From Escherichia phage S143_2: 64,000 nt of DNA. The stretch lies in sequence record MZ189261.1. One strand, 5' to 3'. Shown one piece after another: positions 32,267 to 43,024 of this stretch. Position 1 is the first letter of the stretch, and each line of letters begins with the position of its first letter. A model generated the notes under the pieces. The model did not search any database, was not told where the DNA came from, and saw only the letters and a program-made list of their open reading frames with translations. The position numbers and the translations under genes are program-made.

Positions 32267-32527
32267 TTAAGCTTTACCGCCAGAAATAATTCCGAAGTTG
32301 TTAAAATCGTATCCAATATCGTCAACATCTACTTTAGGGCTTGCTACAACATAAGCAATTTCACTACGTTTTGCATAGGTGTTGATTTCTTTACCATCGC
32401 CACCTAAGAAAAAATACCCATTACGTTTTAATGAGCCAAAGTCTTCCGCATCACCAATGAAAGCTTTAACTTTAAATTTGGGGCTTTTGGCATCTGCTTC
32501 AGAGATAAATTCTTGGTACATTTTCAT
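32267..32527 (-). CDS. internal protein (CTS-bearing)
   Basis: 86 aa; MKMYQEFISE leader. Confidence 0.55.
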   Translation of the reverse strand: MKMYQEFISEADAKSPKFKVKAFIGDAEDFGSLKRNGYFFLGGDGKEINTYAKRSEIAYVVASPKVDVDDIGYDFNNFGIISGGKA

Positions 32528-33005: not shown

Positions 33006-33287
33006 CTATTTTTCTGAAGCGCCTGAAATATATTTTTCAAGACGTTGTTTCATCAGCGAGCCGTTCTTAGCGATTTCTTCCGGTTTATCGCACATACGCA
33101 ACAAGGCTTCAAGCTTAACGATATCGCTGGTACGTTCAAATTTGCGAGTATCTATCTTACTAGCAAGTTCAGAAATACGTGCTAATAGACTTTCAGCTTC
33201 AACCAAAGCTGCACCTAGCTTAGTTGCAAATGTGTCAGTAGCTTCGTTAAGAATAGATTCTGATAAAAATTCACTATATGTTTTCAT
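33006..33287 (-). CDS. internal protein (CTS-bearing)
   Basis: 93 aa from ATG 33287; [10 protein letters not shown] leader. Confidence 0.55.
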
Positions 33288-33772
33288 ATATACGCTTTCC
33301 AAGTTCCTGTTTTAAATGTTGAGATTACGCGTTTCGCGCGATTAGGTGTCTGACGATACCATTTAGATTGGGCTAGATTTACTGCCGCTTCGTCCCAACG
33401 TTTCTGTTGAAGCATACGAAGAGAATTAGTAAAACCAGCGACGCCTGCTACACCCATTTGGAAGACCATATTGACCAATGCACATCGACGAACTGCATCT
33501 AAAGAATCGTATACCGGTTTAAGTTTAGCATTACCCAAGATTCCGCGAACAGCTTTATCAACGTCTTCATTAAATAACTTTTCAGCCTCATCAAGGGTAA
33601 TTGTACCGTTGCATTTACGTCCGATCATTCTGTCAAGTTCAGCTTTAGCTACGGCTAAAGACGGGTTCTTTGTTACTAAATGACCTATGCCAATCGTCCA
33701 AAAGCCTTCAGTGTCTTTGTATAAAGTCAGTCTAAGACCTTCGTCATTACGAAGCATTTCAAATATATTCAT
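33284..33772 (-). CDS. e: lysozyme (endolysin), gene e
   Basis: 162 aa from ATG 33772: [32 protein letters not shown]...; matches T4 lysozyme incl. catalytic E11/D20/T26 context. Confidence 0.9.
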
Positions 33773-33806: not shown

Positions 33807-34280
33807 TTATAGGATGGTAGTGAGCACCTTATATAATGATTTGCCCATTACATATTCCCATTGAGAAGGTTTAATTAAAGCGAATGCATCAAATTCAGGA
33901 ATCTGTCGTCCGTCTGGGAATGTATGATAGGAATTACAAACACTGTTTCTGAATTGCTCGTGCTCTACAGGGATGGTATATAGGAACAGATGAATATTCT
34001 TATTGTCTGAGTAATGATGTTCACCTAGGTCTTTCAGGAAGGCAGGGTCATATTGTGTAAACCCAGTTTCTTCTTCGCATTCACGAATAGCGGCTTCGAT
34101 AGGAGATTCGCCGGGCTCGACACGACCTTTAGGAATATCCCACCGATGAGCTAAAGAACCTTTAGGACGAGAACCAGTTACACGCCCCATGAATAATTCT
34201 TTATCTTCGGTAAGGAAAATAATACCAGCTGATAGTTCTTTCACTTTATTTTTCTTACTCATCATCTCAAATTCCTGCAT
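33807..34280 (-). CDS. nudE: Nudix hydrolase NudE
   Basis: Nudix box GRVEPGESPIEAAIRECEEETGF; start probably at internal MMSKKNK. Confidence 0.85.
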   Translation of the reverse strand: MQEFEMMSKKNKVKELSAGIIFLTEDKELFMGRVTGSRPKGSLAHRWDIPKGRVEPGESPIEAAIRECEEETGFTQYDPAFLKDLGEHHYSDNKNIHLFLYTIPVEHEQFRNSVCNSYHTFPDGRQIPEFDAFALIKPSQWEYVMGKSLYKVLTTIL

Positions 34281-34753
34281 TCGGTAATAAAACGTTCAAC
34301 TTCATTATTCTTGGCCTTTATCTTGTCTTTATGTTCTTGTAAACTACTTTTAATAAGATTAATAATGATGGCGGTGGTGCCGCCGCCAATGATGCCACCA
34401 ACAACACTTATGATAATAGATGCTAATAAGATAGCAATAATATCAACAAAACCTAAAGAACTCACCTTAGTACTGAAAAACCATATAGACGGTACAAATA
34501 TAATCCATCCTGTTATCCATTGGCACTTATTGAAAAACTTTTCAAGCTCAGCTTGAGTTGTTTGTATTACTTCATCGATAGGTTGATATCCATTAATGTA
34601 TCTGTTCACGATAATACCTGCTGGCTGGTCGATTTTAAATTCTTGGCAAATACGTTTCACTAAGTAGGATGGACAGGATGTCCAATCTACTGAATAGTAT
34701 GAAATACCTTCATTGCCATCGTCTATATTAGACCAATATGTTTTGTTAATCAT
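34262..34753 (-). CDS. membrane protein with C-terminal ERFITECR motif
   Basis: 163 aa; TM helices; Gly-rich stretch; C-terminus ...EVERFITECRNLR. Confidence 0.5.
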   Translation of the reverse strand: MINKTYWSNIDDGNEGISYYSVDWTSCPSYLVKRICQEFKIDQPAGIIVNRYINGYQPIDEVIQTTQAELEKFFNKCQWITGWIIFVPSIWFFSTKVSSLGFVDIIAILLASIIISVVGGIIGGGTTAIIINLIKSSLQEHKDKIKAKNNEVERFITECRNLR

Positions 34754-35439
34754 TACCAGCCTTCCATAGGGAATTCCAGATAAACTTGAGCATTGACACG
34801 AATTTCATTGGTAATCTTTTTAACTCGGTCTGTATTACGAGATACACGTCCGAACCAACGCCATCCATTACTAATTGCACGAGAACCAGTGTGCCATGTT
34901 TGCCAATCAAACTGAAGAAGAGTACGATCTGGAGCTTCCCATTTCTCTAGTTCACCTTTTTCAATTTTTTCGAGGACTTCTTTGTGCCACTGGCGATAGA
35001 TAAGTTCGCCATCAGGAATCTGACTGAACTCTGCAGTTCCTGTTGCAAAATGAGTAGGACACACATCAGCGTTAACAAGACCAAGAATATGTTCAGACAA
35101 ATAGCGAGGATTGTCATAATCAGGTTGTCCTGCAGTAATAAAGTGTTGACCGACTGGAATATCTGGGCGAGGAACATCATCATGGTGATATCCAGGAATA
35201 GCAGGATACCAACCGGGCATCAGCATGTGAACTCGTGAATCAAATACTACATCCGAGTCTTTCCAATCGTCAGGAAGATTTTGGATAAAGCTACGAGTAA
35301 TCGGGCCACCATTATCAAAAGCAAAATTCAAATCGCAGTTAAAGAACATAGGCTCGTTTTTAATCTGGTCGTTTTTAATCGCATGAGCAAAACCACCTAC
35401 TGCACGAGCTTGGCTATTAAACACTTTAGAACTATTCAT
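34753..35439 (-). CDS. hypothetical His/Asp-rich protein
   Basis: 228 aa; possible metal-binding residues (YHHDD, CPTHF); no confident family. Confidence 0.5.
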   Translation of the reverse strand: MNSSKVFNSQARAVGGFAHAIKNDQIKNEPMFFNCDLNFAFDNGGPITRSFIQNLPDDWKDSDVVFDSRVHMLMPGWYPAIPGYHHDDVPRPDIPVGQHFITAGQPDYDNPRYLSEHILGLVNADVCPTHFATGTAEFSQIPDGELIYRQWHKEVLEKIEKGELEKWEAPDRTLLQFDWQTWHTGSRAISNGWRWFGRVSRNTDRVKKITNEIRVNAQVYLEFPMEGW

Positions 35440-35440
35440 A

Positions 35441-35746
35441 TTATTTTCCTCGACATTCTTTAATGAAATTTTCTAGATTGGTAGATTCAATAGCTTTTTT
35501 ACGAGCTTCTGCGTGTTCTTCTTCAGACAATTTACATTTATAATTGACCCAGACATTATGGTCGAAACTAGTCGTGGCATATAATAACAATGCTCCAACG
35601 AATAGCAAAAACGGTGATAAGAATACGAAACCAGGAACACCATCCATATCGTAGGCCTTTTGTAATACTGCAACAGAAAGAGCTGCGTAAAAAGGTGATG
35701 CAAATATTGTTAAAAGACCGATTCGGTTGGTTTCTGTTAATTTCAT
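35441..35746 (-). CDS. membrane protein with C-terminal ENFIKECR motif
   Basis: 101 aa; two TM helices; C-terminus ...NLENFIKECRGK. Confidence 0.5.
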   Translation of the reverse strand: MKLTETNRIGLLTIFASPFYAALSVAVLQKAYDMDGVPGFVFLSPFLLFVGALLLYATTSFDHNVWVNYKCKLSEEEHAEARKKAIESTNLENFIKECRGK

Positions 35747-35764
35747 AATATTCTCCTCATGTTT

Positions 35765-35804
35765 TAATAGGACTACTATATCATAGTCCTATAATTGTGT
35801 AAAC
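35765..35804 (-). promoter_or_regulatory. early promoter plus stem-loop module (family C)
   Basis: minus strand GTTTAC-acaattaTAGGACTATgaTATAGTAGTCCTATTAAAAC. Confidence 0.5.
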
Positions 35805-35816
35805 AGTTTTGTGAAG

Positions 35817-36773
35817 TTATTTGAAAGGTTTTACCATATGGAAATTTTGTTTGAAACGTTTGACGTAATCATCATGTCCTAAGCTTTGGTACATACTTAC
35901 TACTTTGCTGTAGTTTTCCCAGGCATACTCACGGAACCAACCAGAGGTGATGCTTGTACAGACTTTTTCCAATGCCATCATAAAACTGGCTTCAGGGTTA
36001 ATTTTAAAGTCATTAGGAATTTGAGAACGTTCTAATGCTAGTACACATGATTCTTCGTATACACCGGCCAATTTGACCATTTCTGGTAACGATTCAAACT
36101 TCTCGCGTGAGGTCATGACTTCAGAACCGTCTTTCATATAAAATGTATACGCTGGACGGTCTGTTAGTGCAATGGCTTCATGAATAGTATCATGGTCATA
36201 CGTATAGATGTCATCTTTAAAGAACGCACTTTTAGAAGTGTCAAGAACTGGGTGAGCATAGTTCAAGGTTTCTTTCTGGCGTTTCAGCATAATTTCAGTA
36301 AGTTCATCGTTCAGTGTAACACCTTTACCACGAAGATACTGAATATGGTTCATAGTCTTTAAAAAGAATGGATTATTTTTCTTGAAACGATGAGACAACT
36401 TAATTGCAAGACATATCTCAGGAGTTGCCCAGTAAAACCCGTTCAAACGGTCTTTAGTCAAATTTTTCTTGGCGTATTTTAAAAGGTCATAAGAAGACGT
36501 GAAATCTTCAGGAGTGAGTTCACCTACTAATTCACGGACATTAGTGATTGCCGGAACAATATATGCTTCAAAATGAGTTTCGCGTCCATTATGGAAGCAT
36601 TTGAAAACTTGGACATCAGGGTTATCTTGATGAACATATACACCCATCATTTGATTTTTGAATGCATTCCAAGAACCTTGGTCTGCAATAAAGTCCCAGT
36701 CACTATTTTTGATAGCGTTAGAATCAATAAGACCATGATAGTGAAGTGCACGAGAACCAATAACTAACATCAT
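35817..36773 (-). CDS. nucleotidyltransferase-fold protein (second copy)
   Basis: 318 aa; N-terminal GSRALHYHGLIDSNAIKNSDWDF (G[SG]...DxD). Confidence 0.45.
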   Translation of the reverse strand: MMLVIGSRALHYHGLIDSNAIKNSDWDFIADQGSWNAFKNQMMGVYVHQDNPDVQVFKCFHNGRETHFEAYIVPAITNVRELVGELTPEDFTSSYDLLKYAKKNLTKDRLNGFYWATPEICLAIKLSHRFKKNNPFFLKTMNHIQYLRGKGVTLNDELTEIMLKRQKETLNYAHPVLDTSKSAFFKDDIYTYDHDTIHEAIALTDRPAYTFYMKDGSEVMTSREKFESLPEMVKLAGVYEESCVLALERSQIPNDFKINPEASFMMALEKVCTSITSGWFREYAWENYSKVVSMYQSLGHDDYVKRFKQNFHMVKPFK

Positions 36774-36801
36774 AATATTTTCCTCGGATTAATTCATTAA
36801 C

Positions 36802-37053
36802 TTAAATTTCACGACATGCGATATCATATTCATCCCAGAGGTCATCGTGTGAAGCCTCTACCAATGGAACGATTGTACCATTTATGTCTTCATTATAAGG
36901 GCAAATTGTACAGTGCGCATCTTCGAATCGGATACCTTTGTGTTCAGATTTTTTATAACGCATATCGAATATCTTTGCAAATTTTTCACGAGTAATGGTT
37001 TTACCAACCACTTTGGTTCCGATACTTTCGTAATAAATCATTGTGGACTCCAT
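36802..37053 (-). CDS. hypothetical protein
   Basis: 83-aa ORF. Confidence 0.4.
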   Translation of the reverse strand: MESTMIYYESIGTKVVGKTITREKFAKIFDMRYKKSEHKGIRFEDAHCTICPYNEDINGTIVPLVEASHDDLWDEYDIACREI

Positions 37054-37057
37054 TTAA

Positions 37058-37099
37058 TTTGATAGGACTACTATAACATAGCCCTATCTTGTTGTAAAC
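37058..37099 (-). promoter_or_regulatory. early promoter plus stem-loop module (family C)
   Basis: minus strand GTTTAC-aacaagaTAGGGCTATgtTATAGTAGTCCTATCAAAT. Confidence 0.5.
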
Positions 37100-37103
37100 T
37101 GTT

Positions 37104-37301
37104 TTAGCAAGAATAACTAGACGATACCCAGCCTTGAACAGTGATACTATTGTGGGATAATGAGATCGCGTCCTGGAGATTCAGACCTGCGTTATCTTCA
37201 ATCCATAACGTAACTTCTTCGCGTTCTTCTGTTGCAATTTGGAACAGGTTTTCCAGAGCAGCTACTGCCGTACGTACAGCACAATCTAATTCACGAGACA
37301 T
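37104..37301 (-). CDS. small protein ending W-V-SSSYSC (paralog C)
   Basis: 65 aa; C-terminus QGWVSSSYSC. Confidence 0.5.
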   Translation of the reverse strand: MSRELDCAVRTAVAALENLFQIATEEREEVTLWIEDNAGLNLQDAISLSHNSITVQGWVSSSYSC

Positions 37302-37310
37302 ATGGTTTCC

Positions 37311-37583
37311 TTAGCAAGTGTGAGAAGATGCGATCCAACCACCAGTTTCGAGGCTTAGGTTGTAGTCGTATTGGTAAACGTCGGCCCATTCAGCATAGCC
37401 GTTTTTTGTACAACGTTCAAGGTCGGCTTTAAGCTGTCCGGGTGAATGATATGTTCCACCCATACCATAAGCTGGATACAAGTCGAATGTTGTGTTTTGT
37501 TTATCAGCAATTTCTTTGGCAGCCTCAATAGCTGCATAGATTTTTGCTACAGCTTCAGCCAATTCGGTTTGTTCTTTAGACAT
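37311..37583 (-). CDS. small protein ending W-I-ASSHTC (paralog B)
   Basis: 90 aa; shares N-terminal helix and YG.G.TY core with 37593..37898. Confidence 0.5.
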   Translation of the reverse strand: MSKEQTELAEAVAKIYAAIEAAKEIADKQNTTFDLYPAYGMGGTYHSPGQLKADLERCTKNGYAEWADVYQYDYNLSLETGGWIASSHTC

Positions 37584-37592
37584 AGTGATTCC

Positions 37593-37898
37593 TTAGCACA
37601 ACGCAGAAGACGAAACCCAAGCACCTTCAGTAATAACGTAACCGTTACCTTCACGCTTAACATCGCCACCATTATTTTCAATTTCATCTTTCATCCACTG
37701 GGATACGATTTCACCCTTAGGATAATAAGTACGACCGCTACCATAATCACCTACAGAAAATGATACGGCATATTGGTCTGCGATCTTTGTTGCTTCTTCT
37801 TCGATACGTTCAGCTTGATTCAGAAGTTTATAAATTGCGTCTGAAGCGGATTTGGCATCATTAAACTCTGGTACTTTAATTTCAATAATCTTACTCAT
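37593..37898 (-). CDS. small protein ending W-V-SSSALC (paralog A)
   Basis: 101 aa; C-terminus EGAWVSSSALC. Confidence 0.5.
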   Translation of the reverse strand: MSKIIEIKVPEFNDAKSASDAIYKLLNQAERIEEEATKIADQYAVSFSVGDYGSGRTYYPKGEIVSQWMKDEIENNGGDVKREGNGYVITEGAWVSSSALC

Positions 37899-38254
37899 TT
37901 TCTACATTCCTTAATAAAGTTTTCGATTGTTTCATTTTCACGTCTAGCTAGGAGTTCATTATAACTAATCATTTGAGAAGCGTAAACCTTTTTATTTTTC
38001 TTGTTATGGTTTATAAAGTCGTAGTAAAAATAGACTACAGTACAAAAGGATGCGATGGATGCAAAGGCTTGGGTATACCGTAAGTCCTGCCATTGGTCTG
38101 TGAATCCACCAGTGTTCCCTATAAATCCTAACACAACGCCGTCAATAAGAAATCCAACTAATCCAAAGGCAAATCCCATGCCAATACTCATAATAAAAAT
38201 TAGAATGTTCTCACCAAGAGAAGGCCATACGGTTAAGAGTTGAGGCTTTTGCAT
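37895..38254 (-). CDS. membrane protein with C-terminal ENFIKECR motif
   Basis: 119 aa; multiple TM helices; C-terminus ...TIENFIKECRK. Confidence 0.5.
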   Translation of the reverse strand: MQKPQLLTVWPSLGENILIFIMSIGMGFAFGLVGFLIDGVVLGFIGNTGGFTDQWQDLRYTQAFASIASFCTVVYFYYDFINHNKKNKKVYASQMISYNELLARRENETIENFIKECRK

Positions 38255-38658
38255 CTTATTTCCTTAACGAATTCCATAGCTTCTTCATATTCATACTTTT
38301 TAACAGCTTCATCATACTGAGCTTGGGCTTTTGCGCACTGAACTTTCCATTCTCTTAATCGGGCTCTGTGATGACGGCCTTGGTGCCAATATCCTGCCCA
38401 ATTAATAGGCATTAATAAAAACGGTACAATAAGTGGTGCGACGAACATTAATGAAAACGCTGCATCAGACGATATAACTTTATTGGAATCTAAAACAGCT
38501 CCTATAATCATAAAGATTAAAAACGCTAAAGCTAAAATAGGGCCAAATAGTACTTCATTTGGGATTAATTTACGCTTGTATTCATACGCCCAGGGCTTAC
38601 TTGGCATGTATAGGGTTGGCTTTGACATATTCTCTACATTCCATAATAAATTGCTCAA
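38233..38658 (-). CDS. membrane protein with variant C-terminal motif (EFVKEIRC)
   Basis: 141 aa; two TM helices. Confidence 0.5.
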   Translation of the reverse strand: MSNLLWNVENMSKPTLYMPSKPWAYEYKRKLIPNEVLFGPILALAFLIFMIIGAVLDSNKVISSDAAFSLMFVAPLIVPFLLMPINWAGYWHQGRHHRARLREWKVQCAKAQAQYDEAVKKYEYEEAMEFVKEIRCKSLNS

Positions 38659-39214
38659 GGATTAAATTGTTAGTGAAATTAGGACTAACAACCATGGTTT
38701 CATAAAGCGCATCAATAGCACTTAAAGCATCAACTCTTTTAAGCAAAGGCTTGCCTTCATACATAGTTTCAGAATCGACGATTAAAGTGAAGTAGTATTT
38801 TTTATTATTGACCAGAACTTCTGTATCAATATAAAACATGTTAGACCTTAAAAGCTTGTCTCTAAAGCCTATGTAATCATCTGAACGTTCACTGATATAG
38901 TCCCATTCAGTGTTTAAACAACAAACAGACCACGTAGGAGCAACGAAATCAGTGAATCTAATATCATGGTCTGCAACTAGTTTAGCAATAGCTCCGATAT
39001 CATGAATCATAATACCTGGGGCTAATAAAGATTTTCGGTTATTTGCATATTCAGTTGTCTCATAAGAAGACGACCAGTACCATTTACGTCCAGTTGCAAC
39101 ATATCGTAATGAATCAACTAAAGACGTAGGTGGATTTACCTTATCTCGGAACTCTTCGAACATTGAGTCAATATCATTATTTTGGTTTCGCATGTTAACT
39201 CCTTTATTATCCAA
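38597..39214 (-). CDS. hypothetical protein with EQFIMECR motif near C-terminus (start uncertain)
   Basis: track ORF overlaps upstream gene; probable start MRNQNNDIDS. Confidence 0.4.
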   Translation of the reverse strand: MDNKGVNMRNQNNDIDSMFEEFRDKVNPPTSLVDSLRYVATGRKWYWSSSYETTEYANNRKSLLAPGIMIHDIGAIAKLVADHDIRFTDFVAPTWSVCCLNTEWDYISERSDDYIGFRDKLLRSNMFYIDTEVLVNNKKYYFTLIVDSETMYEGKPLLKRVDALSAIDALYETMVVSPNFTNNLILEQFIMECREYVKANPIHAK

Positions 39215-39242
39215 AAGGAGGACCGGAGTCCTCCGTATTATT

Positions 39243-39836
39243 TTATTTCAAAGAGTTAATATATTCTTGTACATCAGCAGAAGTGGTTTCGACACCAGCT
39301 GGAGTACCATTGAACGTTTCAACACGAGTCAGAGTGTCTTCGATATCAACCTTAGTCAGTGCAGCGATTTCAATTACATCATCAGCCGTAGAGATACCAA
39401 GGGCATTAGCTGCTCGAGTTTCACGAATGTATTCGAGTTTGATTGCCAGATTCTGACGAGCATCGTCAAGTTCAACAACCTTACGAGCAATTTCAATTCG
39501 CATAGCGGCATACCCGTCAGCTTTTGTATTAAGTTGTTCGGCAGTTCGACGATACAGAAGACCAAGCTTGGCATGCATGGTAACATCTTGTCCTTCAGCC
39601 AGGAGCTTACGAATTTCACGTTCCTTAGAAGCGGCTTGCTTATTCTTTTCAATAACAAGTTCGCGAATACGTTTTTCTTCATTAATAGATTTAACAGAAG
39701 CCGTTTTTAGTTCTTTGATTTGGGTAATCAACTTATCTGCAGCTGCGTTATACTGTTCTTCGACAGTCAGATTTTTAGCCATAGCAGTACCCAGTTTAGT
39801 GCGGATGAATTCAACAAGTTTCTTCAGTGTGTTCAT
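39243..39836 (-). CDS. coiled-coil protein, possibly PspA/IM30-like (tentative)
   Basis: 197 aa from ATG 39836; long amphipathic coiled coil; weak resemblance to PspA family. Confidence 0.35.
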
Positions 39837-39871: not shown

Positions 39872-39906
39872 GAGAGCATTATACTCTGCTCTCAAGAGTT
39901 TGTAAA
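39872..39906 (-). promoter_or_regulatory. sigma70-type early promoter with palindrome flanking -10 (module family B)
   Basis: minus strand TTTACA-aactcttGAGAGCagag-TATAAT-GCTCTCgttggataataaa; paralog of 9275-9310. Confidence 0.55.
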
Positions 39907-40827: not shown

Positions 40828-41454
40828 TTACTTACGAGTTTTTGCATACTGAGCAGCGTCAGCAGCCAAACGACCTGCCTGACGAAGTTTTTCTTTAATC
40901 GCATCGTGAAGTGGTTGAGTATACTTCAAACCTTCGATAGTCAAATAAAGACGATAAAGGTCTGGGGTGTCAAGGTTGTTGATATGTTGGCCATTACGAA
41001 GAATATTGAATTCACGAACGAGTGAAGATGTATCAGATTCAATATCACGAACAAGCGAAGATAGTTGTTTATATTTTTTTTCCAGGCTAGAAGTATCAAA
41101 CTTAAGAGCAGGAGCTTTAGGAGTTGCTTTTACTTCCGGCTTAGGCTCAGGTTTTGCTACTGCTTTAGGGGTCGCAGGTTTAGGAGTGGTAGGAGCAGGT
41201 TTCACTTTAGGCGAACCCGATTTAGCAGAAACACCACCACTAACAATATCTTTGAATGCTTTAGAAGCTCTGTAATATTCTTTTTGGCTGGAAGTGTCGA
41301 TACCGTACATGGCTTGAACGTTTTTGAAAAACTCTGTACTAGTTTTTGTACCAGAAATAGCATCGTAAGCAGCTTGCCATTTCTCTTTTGTCATACGTAC
41401 ACCGGCTTCGGTGATTACTTCCGTTTCGGCTAAAAATTCATTAAAAGTATACAT
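40828..41454 (-). CDS. Pro/Lys-rich protein with degenerate CTS-like leader
   Basis: 208 aa; N-terminus MYTFNEFLAE resembles CTS; central PKPATPKAVAKPEPKPEVKATPKAP low-complexity linker. Confidence 0.5.
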   Translation of the reverse strand: MYTFNEFLAETEVITEAGVRMTKEKWQAAYDAISGTKTSTEFFKNVQAMYGIDTSSQKEYYRASKAFKDIVSGGVSAKSGSPKVKPAPTTPKPATPKAVAKPEPKPEVKATPKAPALKFDTSSLEKKYKQLSSLVRDIESDTSSLVREFNILRNGQHINNLDTPDLYRLYLTIEGLKYTQPLHDAIKEKLRQAGRLAADAAQYAKTRK

Positions 41455-42192: not shown

Positions 42193-42269
<77 letters not shown>

Positions 42270-42273
42270 TATT

Positions 42274-42348
42274 TGGCGGACGTGATAGGATTCGAACCTA
42301 TAACCAATCGCTTAACAGGCGATCGCTCTGCCATTGAGCTACACATCC
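42274..42348 (-). tRNA. tRNA-Asn (anticodon GUU)
   Basis: 75-nt cloverleaf; anticodon stem ATCGC/GCGAT, loop CUGUUAA; T-arm GGTTCGAATCC; encoded CCA. Confidence 0.8.
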
Positions 42349-42352
42349 AAAT

Positions 42353-42439
42353 TGGTGGGGAGTGATGGAGTCGAACCACCCGAGTCGCAATGACAATGGA
42401 TTTACAGTCCACACCGCTACCTCTACGGGATAACTCCCC
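42353..42439 (-). tRNA. tRNA-Tyr (anticodon GUA)
   Basis: 87 nt with long variable arm; anticodon loop CUGUAAA; acceptor GGGGAGT/ACTCCCC; encoded CCA. Confidence 0.75.
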
Positions 42440-42451
42440 TAATTCATAATT

Positions 42452-42526
42452 TGGTGGCCCTGGGTGGAATTGAACCACCATCTGGCGATTATGAGTCGCT
42501 TGCTTGAACCTTCCAGCTACAGGGCC
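42452..42526 (-). tRNA. tRNA with CAU anticodon (Met or Ile2)
   Basis: 75-nt cloverleaf; anticodon loop CUCAUAA; position after Thr corresponds to T4 tRNA-Ile. Confidence 0.75.
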
Positions 42527-42527
42527 T

Positions 42528-42604
42528 TGGTGCTGATTGACGGAATCGAACCGCCGACCTTCTCATTACAAGTGAGTTGCTCTACCTACTGAGCTAAATC
42601 AGCA
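42528..42604 (-). tRNA. tRNA-Thr (anticodon UGU)
   Basis: 77-nt cloverleaf; anticodon loop CUUGUAA; T-arm GGTTCGATTCC. Confidence 0.8.
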
Positions 42605-42608
42605 AAAC

Positions 42609-42698
42609 TGGCGGAGGCGATAGGATTTGAACCTATGAGTCGCCGGAGCGACTGCCGGTTTTCAAGACCGGTGCATTAAACCACTCTGCCACGCCTCC
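42609..42698 (-). tRNA. tRNA-Ser (anticodon UGA)
   Basis: 90 nt with long variable arm; anticodon loop CUUGAAA; acceptor GGAGGCG/CGCCTCC. Confidence 0.8.
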
Positions 42699-42700
42699 AG

Positions 42701-42774
42701 TCTCCATACAAGGATTTGAACCTTGGGCCTCCTGATCCCAAATCAGGCGCTCTACCAAACTGAGCTACACGGAG
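42701..42774 (-). tRNA. tRNA-Pro (anticodon UGG)
   Basis: 74 nt; anticodon loop UUUGGGA; T-arm GGTTCAAATCC; CCA not encoded. Confidence 0.75.
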
Positions 42775-42784
42775 TAAATTAAAT

Positions 42785-42858
<74 letters not shown>

Positions 42859-42863
42859 AAATT

Positions 42864-42950
42864 TGGTGCGAGAAGTGGGACTCGAACCCACAAGGAAATC
42901 ATTCCGCAGCATTTTAAGTGCTGTGCCTTTACCAATTTGGCCATTCTCGC
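42864..42950 (-). tRNA. tRNA-Leu (anticodon UAA)
   Basis: 87 nt with long variable arm; anticodon loop CUUAAAA. Confidence 0.8.
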
Positions 42951-42951
42951 G

Positions 42952-43024
42952 CTGGGAATAAAGGACTCGAACCTTTGCATCCTGGAATCAAAATCCAGTG
43001 CCTTACCAACTTGGCTAATTCCCA
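42952..43024 (-). tRNA. tRNA-Gln (anticodon UUG)
   Basis: 73 nt; anticodon loop UUUUGAU; T-arm GGTTCGAGTCC; CCA not encoded. Confidence 0.75.

Follow-up and report, generated by a model that had tools for sequence, protein, structure and literature searches.

In phage T4, the capsid targeting sequence (CTS) of IPI, IPII, IPIII and Alt is an N-terminal peptide of virion proteins, from which the gp21 protease removes it by cutting after [IL]-x-E; unrelated proteins, among them gp43, gp33 and gp55, dock on gp45 through C-terminal clamp-binding peptides. At the nucleotide level, promoter early stem-loops (PeSLs) recur as short conserved sequences at gene boundaries in the plastic regions of T4-type phages (PMC2839356, PMC4122927). 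We describe here a short C-terminal protein motif, with the core F-[IV]-x-x-C-R, in a 64,000-nucleotide stretch of Escherichia phage S143_2 (MZ189261.1; hereafter the window), where it is carried by five otherwise unrelated proteins whose genes lie between e.6 and nudE, all on the minus strand. The CTS is similar in being a terminal peptide of about 10 residues on unrelated T4 proteins with one destination, and its 'E-F-[IL]-x-E' flavour resembles the motif; the latter differs in its C-terminal position, on the tails of membrane and soluble early proteins. CTS starts are themselves present in the window, on internal-protein-like genes at 32267-32527, 33006-33302 and 40828-41454 (minus strand), for example MKMYQEFISE... 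and MYTFNEFLAE.... Cleavage of the motif by gp21, between E and C of I-K-E-C, was considered and rejected: Glu occupies position +3, counted from the Phe, in 24 of 69 unique tails, and G, Q, N, M, Y, L, S and H are also found there. The clamp-binding peptides are comparable as short hydrophobic C-terminal peptides serving one hub, but their sequence is another one and their carriers are soluble replication and transcription proteins scattered over the genome, whereas the carriers of the present motif are clustered and mostly membrane proteins. PeSLs share with the motif a recurrent location at gene boundaries, yet they consist of an intergenic promoter and a hairpin and are conserved as nucleotides, while the motif lies in coding sequence, is conserved at the amino acid level as its codons drift synonymously, and has no hairpin. 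The earlier note on this DNA, made from the letters alone, did not recognise the motif as described; a full-text literature search with FIKECR and the gene names, which left the classic T4 literature outside its reach, gave no description of it either, and the word 'undescribed' is used provisionally.

The window belongs to the genus Mosigvirus (T4-like, Straboviridae) and shows 97.8% identity to phage HX01 by megablast. From annotated relatives and T4, the gene order of the region is e.6, e.5, e.4, e.3, three small paralogues, an 83-aa gene, a 318-aa DUF7275/7277 gene, a 101-aa gene, a 228-aa gene, an e.2-type gene, nudE and e (lysozyme). The five motif-bearing open reading frames (ORFs) have exactly the ends and tails given in the earlier note. 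The e.5 homologue (38597-39193, 198 aa from the ATG at 39193; PHROG 2607) is soluble and ends ...EQFIMECREYVKANPIHAK, with the motif codons at 38633-38650, that is, 11 residues short of the C-terminus; its T4 counterpart ends ...EKFVKECREYVKAITIPSK, and precomputed assignments place e.5 homologues in PF26876 'Phage_T4_Y06P'. The e.4 homologue (38233-38628, 131 aa from the ATG at 38628) has two transmembrane (TM) helices and ends ...EFVKEIRCKSLNS; its copy (38254-38271) is degenerate, with I at the Cys position and a Cys two residues later, and the corresponding C-termini are ...KFVKESRCKSQS in T4 and ...EEFIKEVRNGTA in VR26. The e.3 homologue (37895-38254, 119 aa), a membrane protein labelled as similar to T4 e.3 in the annotation of phage ATK48, ends ...ENFIKECRK (motif codons 37901-37918), and T4 e.3 ends ...KEFVIDCRKIK. 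The 101-aa two-TM protein (35441-35746; PHROG 9798), seen only in Mosigvirus in this analysis, ends ...ENFIKECRGK (35450-35467), with 36 aa between TM2 and the motif. The e.2-type protein (34262-34753, 163 aa; PHROG 2203, 'membrane protein') ends ...ERFITECRNLR (34274-34291); its N-terminus is homologous to T4 e.2 and its layout is a soluble N-terminal domain followed by two TM helices and a predicted cytoplasmic tail. The suggestion that four of the five are membrane proteins agrees with a Kyte-Doolittle scan, which predicts two TM helices in each of them and a soluble e.5. The pattern F[IV].[ED]CR has four matches in the six-frame translation of the 64 kb, each at the end of one of the listed genes, where 200 shuffles of the window averaged 0.065 and never exceeded 1; e.4 joins them when C is relaxed to [CSI]. 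A scan of the window with the DNA consensus, allowing up to 3 mismatches, found these five sites again and nothing out of frame or between genes. The C-terminal placement had to be loosened: the motif is not always at the extreme end, lying 0-22 residues from it.

The spread of the motif was followed through 80 loci collected with the conserved 228-aa neighbour as anchor, and through further loci added via e.6. It is present in at least seven genera (Mosigvirus, Tequatrovirus, Gaprivervirus, Kanagawavirus, Winklervirus, Tegunavirus and Marfavirus), and each genome has 3-6 carriers. Among 2797 ORFs, F[IVL]..[CV]R has 92 matches, 79 of which lie 25 residues or fewer from a C-terminus. Across 29 loci, 94 of the 345 ORFs in the e.6-to-nudE interval carry the motif in their last 31 residues, compared with 7 of 1017 outside it (Fisher p = 7e-52 for the enrichment, with phylogeny not corrected for), and all seven of the outside carriers are e.2-type genes misplaced by the boundary rule; with these genes reassigned, the counts are 101 of ~350 inside and 0 of ~1000 in the flanks. 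Where the 228-aa anchor occurs in other genomic contexts, no motif carriers were found at those loci. The motif is a real protein-level motif, statistically overwhelming, and a hallmark of the whole e.6-to-nudE interval in at least seven genera. When 69 unique tails are aligned on the Phe (position 0), position -3 is L, F, V or I in 54 of them, followed by [N/E/D]-x-F; position +1 is I in 51, V in 13 and L in 5, position +4 is C in 60 and V in 9, and R-(K/E/N/R) follows. Since the search pattern itself imposed the F, the R and the residues allowed at +1 and +4, only the proportions within these sets are informative; the preferences at -3 and -2 are independent of it. Variants within the same interval have W for F, K for R, and I, L, M or A for C. 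The wording ENFIKECR, under which the motif was noticed, holds for its core F-[IV]-x-x-C-R, its E and K not being conserved beyond this lineage. A search of a 5.8-billion-protein database with the tail profile returned e.2-type fragments only and is uninformative on the breadth of the motif outside T4-like phages or in hosts. In a 231.7-kb phage genome from IMG/VR (locus L019, 11644-12917; near-identical genes in L020), two proteins that follow e.6 end ...SFVNYCIVNVRGSV and ...SFVDYCVAMCKLTQEK, a degenerate form, F-V-x-Y-C, that lacks the Arg; this lineage is a more distant one.

The whole genome of T4, translated in six frames, contains three strict matches only: e.5, e.3 and the tail of a split e.2. 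This tail is an unannotated 45-codon ORF ending ...NNFITECRKLK, located between e.2 and nudE (NC_000866 67484-67636, minus strand). In RB51 and phage sutha, e.2 is intact, with 162 aa, and ends in that tail (...NLNNFITECRKLK); on this comparison, the 102-aa e.2 of the T4 reference is to be read as a truncated, split gene.

The description of the carriers as otherwise unrelated is borne out. The 94 instances fall into 24 clusters whose bodies are not linked by BLASTP, and the five window proteins belong to five different PHROGs of unknown function; against Pfam and NCBIfam they gave sub-threshold matches only, far below curated cut-offs. In hhalign comparisons of small family alignments, only the last 10-17 residues align (probability 94.7% for e.2 with e.3 and 86% for e.3 with the 101-aa protein), with the exception of e.3 and e.4, which align over 53 columns (88%). 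Once the tails are removed this similarity is gone, with a probability of at most 14% for all ten pairs, including 13.9% for e.3 with e.4. The membrane carriers have a common layout of two TM helices, 27-45 aa and the motif, and their tails are predicted to be cytoplasmic because basic residues follow TM2 (positive-inside rule). The soluble carriers are the proteins at the e.5 position (93-273 aa, several unlinked families) and small proteins of 73-102 aa. The idea of a family of small membrane proteins describes most carriers, which are small proteins of the inner membrane, but several soluble families have to be added to it. Taken together, the genes from e.6 to nudE in enterobacterial Tevenvirinae are shown to code for a changing set of fast-evolving early proteins with nothing detectable in common but the C-terminal peptide.

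The codons of the motif indicate the level at which it is conserved. The tails of e.3 and the 101-aa protein contain an identical ENFIKECR encoded by GAAAACTTTATTAAGGAATGTAGA and GAAAATTTCATTAAAGAATGTCGA, with four synonymous and no non-synonymous differences, and the closest pair of tails in the window has 20 of 24 nucleotides in common. Over 73 unique instances, Arg is encoded by AGA (23), CGT (23), AGG (9), CGC (9), CGA (8) and CGG (1), Cys by TGC (38) or TGT (28), Phe by TTT (53) or TTC (20), and Ile by ATT, ATC or ATA. The x positions vary freely, and nucleotide conservation is limited to what determines F, I/V, C and R. Folding of the RNA of the five junctions gave no structure (z-scores +0.23, -1.51, +1.76, +1.01 and +0.77), and Rfam matched the tRNA cluster only. 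The synonymous codon differences from which the earlier note had argued for selection on the peptide are all found in the window, and the argument is strengthened by the use of all synonymous codons and by the lack of any out-of-frame copy in the window or in T4; of the two findings that would have spoken for a nucleotide-level origin, one identical DNA segment and a frame artefact of an overlapping regulatory site, neither was encountered. Read through its codons, the pattern is that of a motif kept by purifying selection on amino acids.

This evidence bears directly on two explanations in which the peptide would be a passenger. According to one of them, the motif DNA and the start of the next gene would form a recombination linker that is copied together with gene cassettes. 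The motif does stand always at gene junctions, in a region rich in cassette indels: e.3 adjoins e.2 in T4 and is separated from it by 8 genes in Mosigvirus, mogra, VR26 and others have, between their e.2-type gene and nudE, a 78-aa gene (1956-2192 of locus L001) that is absent from the window, and the PeSLs provide a known precedent for boundary elements in T4-type phages (PMC2839356, PMC4122927). A copied linker is nevertheless improbable, as the copies differ synonymously only, the best pair in the window being the one with 20 of 24 nucleotides in common, the peptide is conserved in seven genera while nucleotides and x positions vary, the excess of similarity within genomes is not significant, and the precedent itself is intergenic and hairpin-forming. 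The other explanation takes the motif for a by-product of translation initiation, in which an RNA signal for the next gene (a Shine-Dalgarno sequence, an A/U-rich enhancer or a coupling element) would by chance translate into F-I-K-E-C-R. In all five window cases the end of the motif lies -1 to 10 nt upstream of the ATG of the next gene, the Shine-Dalgarno candidates of that gene are AAG-GAA (K-E) or AGG-AA (R-N/K), AGA and AGG are enriched among the Arg codons, and in e.4 and e.5 the motif adjoins the downstream start rather than the very end of the protein. The place of the Shine-Dalgarno sequence is, however, not fixed: it falls on K-E after e.3 and e.4, on C-R-N for nudE and on R-G-K for the 228-aa gene, and 20-30 nt further downstream in VR26 e.5 and in the 234-aa protein of Q7622. 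The purine-rich K-E codons are precisely the variable x-x positions, which read KG, DQ, KN, QM, KY, NL, NS, AM and others across relatives. Neither the window nor T4 contains a copy in a different frame or within an intergenic leader, hundreds of other tight T4 junctions lack the motif, and RNA structure is missing at the junctions; the by-product explanation is largely refuted and we consider it very improbable.

Two further explanations operate at the level of the protein. The carriers could be diverged paralogues of one ancestral small two-TM protein, multiplied by tandem duplication, in which the tail has been kept for some intrinsic role, such as self-association or hetero-oligomerisation of the proteins of the cluster, and not for an external partner. 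The uniform layout of the membrane carriers points in this direction, as do tandem neighbours with near-identical tails (FVKGCRNGRRS and FVKGCRNGRN in Q7622; NWIKGCRK and NWVKGCRK in PWKp16) and the long e.3/e.4 alignment, which is good with the tail and weak without it. The soluble carriers of 73-273 aa, such as the e.5-position proteins and the small 'WPDMVW' proteins, have unrelated bodies, most pairs show no hhalign similarity outside the tail, and the five PHROGs are different, all of which makes common descent unlikely as the explanation; it would moreover account for the origin of the motif and not for its retention, and as an origin it is compatible with a docking function. The tail could also be a degron, one of the options of the earlier note, that marks early proteins for a protease of the host or the phage (FtsH, ClpXP, Lon or Tsp) and leads to their removal later in infection. 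An exposed cytoplasmic C-terminal tail on early proteins would suit such a role, and FtsH starts from the cytoplasmic tails of membrane proteins. The distance of the motif to the C-terminus, with its range of 0-22 residues, argues against it, as do the polar or basic ends of the tails, which are unlike the non-polar degrons of the ssrA type; we accord the degron little probability.

We propose instead that the motif is a short amphipathic docking helix. On a helical wheel, positions -3, 0, +1 and +4 would be placed at 60, 0, 100 and 40 degrees, forming one hydrophobic face beside the invariant Arg, and it is because these positions share a 100-degree arc flanked by Arg that a docking helix is inferred. 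The marks of a short linear motif are present, namely short, position-specific conservation by purifying selection in unrelated, fast-diverging proteins. All carriers, whether membrane-anchored or soluble, may bind the same cytoplasmic hub through their tails, so that constraint would fall on the docking peptide and leave the bodies to diverge; a protein of the host or a conserved one of the phage could be the partner. We give about an even chance to the proposal as a whole, in which the tail forms an amphipathic helix on the cytoplasmic side and docks on one putative partner shared by all carriers. The replacement of Cys by V, I, L or M fits a small hydrophobic contact rather than catalysis or a metal ligand. 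Of the three functions suggested in the earlier note, sorting, recognition by a protease or chaperone, and partner binding, the last appears the most plausible. The C-terminal peptide of FtsZ, I-x-x-F-L, bears a likeness to the motif that was considered as a lead only.

The sole lead to the hub is e.6, on account of synteny. The e.6 homologue (39243-39836, minus strand, 197 aa) is a conserved protein with a long helical hairpin; it shows 51-99% identity among relatives and always directly precedes the motif-bearing series. Its AlphaFold2 model (pLDDT 75.9) has an N-terminal helix at 2-22, a hairpin at 25-80/86-145 and a confident C-terminal helix at 186-196, and Foldseek ranks Vipp1, the PspA superfamily and CdvB2 first (probability ~1, E-values 2e-3 to 7e-2). 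In Vipp1, alpha0 spans residues 1-22 and the hairpin 24-142, and in the superfamily alpha5 docks on the hairpin tip of a neighbouring subunit (PMC8281802); the boundaries of the e.6 model agree with alpha0 and the hairpin of Vipp1. A further parallel with the PspA/Vipp1/ESCRT-III group would be offered by PspB and PspC, small inner-membrane proteins with cytoplasmic amphipathic helices that are encoded beside the gene of a long-hairpin protein, PspA. On the strength of the model, e.6 may tentatively be called PspA/Vipp1-like. It can be imagined that e.6 is a membrane remodeller of the PspA/Vipp1/ESCRT-III kind and that, early in infection, interchangeable, fast-evolving two-TM adaptors together with soluble regulators (e.2-e.5 and their replacements) would use their tails, in the manner of alpha5, to recruit, anchor or cap at the inner membrane either an e.6 polymer or the PspA of the host; we hold this reading to be improbable. 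That e.6 is the hub at all lies, for us, somewhere between improbable and unlikely. If the remodelling picture were true, it would amount to a modular phage system of membrane remodelling or membrane protection with swappable adaptors.

Several observations weigh against the docking helix or against e.6 as its partner. The helicity of the tail rests on residue spacing and on an AlphaFold2 model of e.5 that is unusable (4-sequence alignment, pLDDT 38). Tail similarity within genomes does not significantly exceed that between genomes (0.188 vs 0.163, p = 0.08), and there is thus no sign that tails and a partner have co-evolved lineage by lineage, nor any significant sign of gene conversion. AGA and AGG codons for Arg are about twice as frequent as in the background and the motif is always close to the start of the next gene, which points to a mild, secondary pressure at the RNA level from the adjacent ribosome-binding site, one that does not create the motif. 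No sequence link between e.6 and PspA was found in Pfam, in phmmer and profile searches of the PDB, or among 1.84 billion representatives, where the profile search returned only a narrow family of ~200-aa proteins. The tail of e.6 itself, ADVxEY[IL]xSLK, has the same hydrophobic spacing, with a motif-profile score not above the null, and homologues of e.6 in more distant phages are not accompanied by motif-bearing neighbours.

The interest of the motif lies in the fact that for decades no function has been assigned to the e.2-e.8 region of T4, whose proteins evolve too fast for homology methods. One conserved docking peptide would give an experimental handle on the whole cluster, serving as bait for the hub, and mutating three of its residues should disconnect all carriers. 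It also offers a sequence rule by which ORFans with linked functions could be picked out in new genomes of T4-like phages: two TM helices, ~35 aa and F-[IV]-x-x-C-R.

Other features of the region complete this description. In the gap between e.6 and e.5, a GC-rich, terminator-like hairpin (39217-39234, minus strand) is given as a terminator in the ATK48 annotation. A consensus scan indicates a site resembling a T4 early promoter, TTTACA-17-TATAGT, upstream of the 101-aa gene (35775-35803, minus strand), and similar early promoter-like sites at 37070-37098 and 39878-39906. Ten tRNA genes are clustered at 42196-43024 (minus strand), corresponding to the tRNA region that T4 has upstream of its e.x genes. 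The 228-aa protein that served as anchor (34753-35439, minus strand) has 49-99% identity over 80 viral contigs, ends ...VYLEFPMEGW and is without family assignment, and the 318-aa protein (35817-36773, minus strand) corresponds to DUF7277+DUF7275; the genes of both lie among the motif genes in most genera and are absent from the e region of T4. The three tandem paralogues of 65, 90 and 101 aa (PHROG 899; 37104-37301, 37311-37583 and 37593-37898, minus strand) share the ending G-x-W-[VI]-[SA]-S-S-x-x-C, in which the Cys is terminal, and this is a second C-terminal signature conserved in the cluster; VR26, Q7622, X20, fHe-Yen9-01 and PWKp16 have 2-5 copies each, interspersed among the F-I-x-x-C-R genes. 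Downstream, the motif-bearing interval is bounded by nudE, which encodes a Nudix hydrolase (33807-34265, minus strand) and has an ATG overlapping the stop of the e.2-type gene. Its longest or annotated ORF (33807-34280; likewise for T4 nudE) starts at an ATG that arises within the E-C codons (GA-ATG-C) of the motif upstream, giving MQEFEMMSK... or MQEIKMK..., and the true start is probably the downstream ATG, which is preceded by an AGGAA Shine-Dalgarno sequence. At this same boundary, the indel of the 78-aa gene has its junction at window positions 34260-34265, in an ATGAGTA common to both gene starts, in the manner of a microhomology-type cassette indel.

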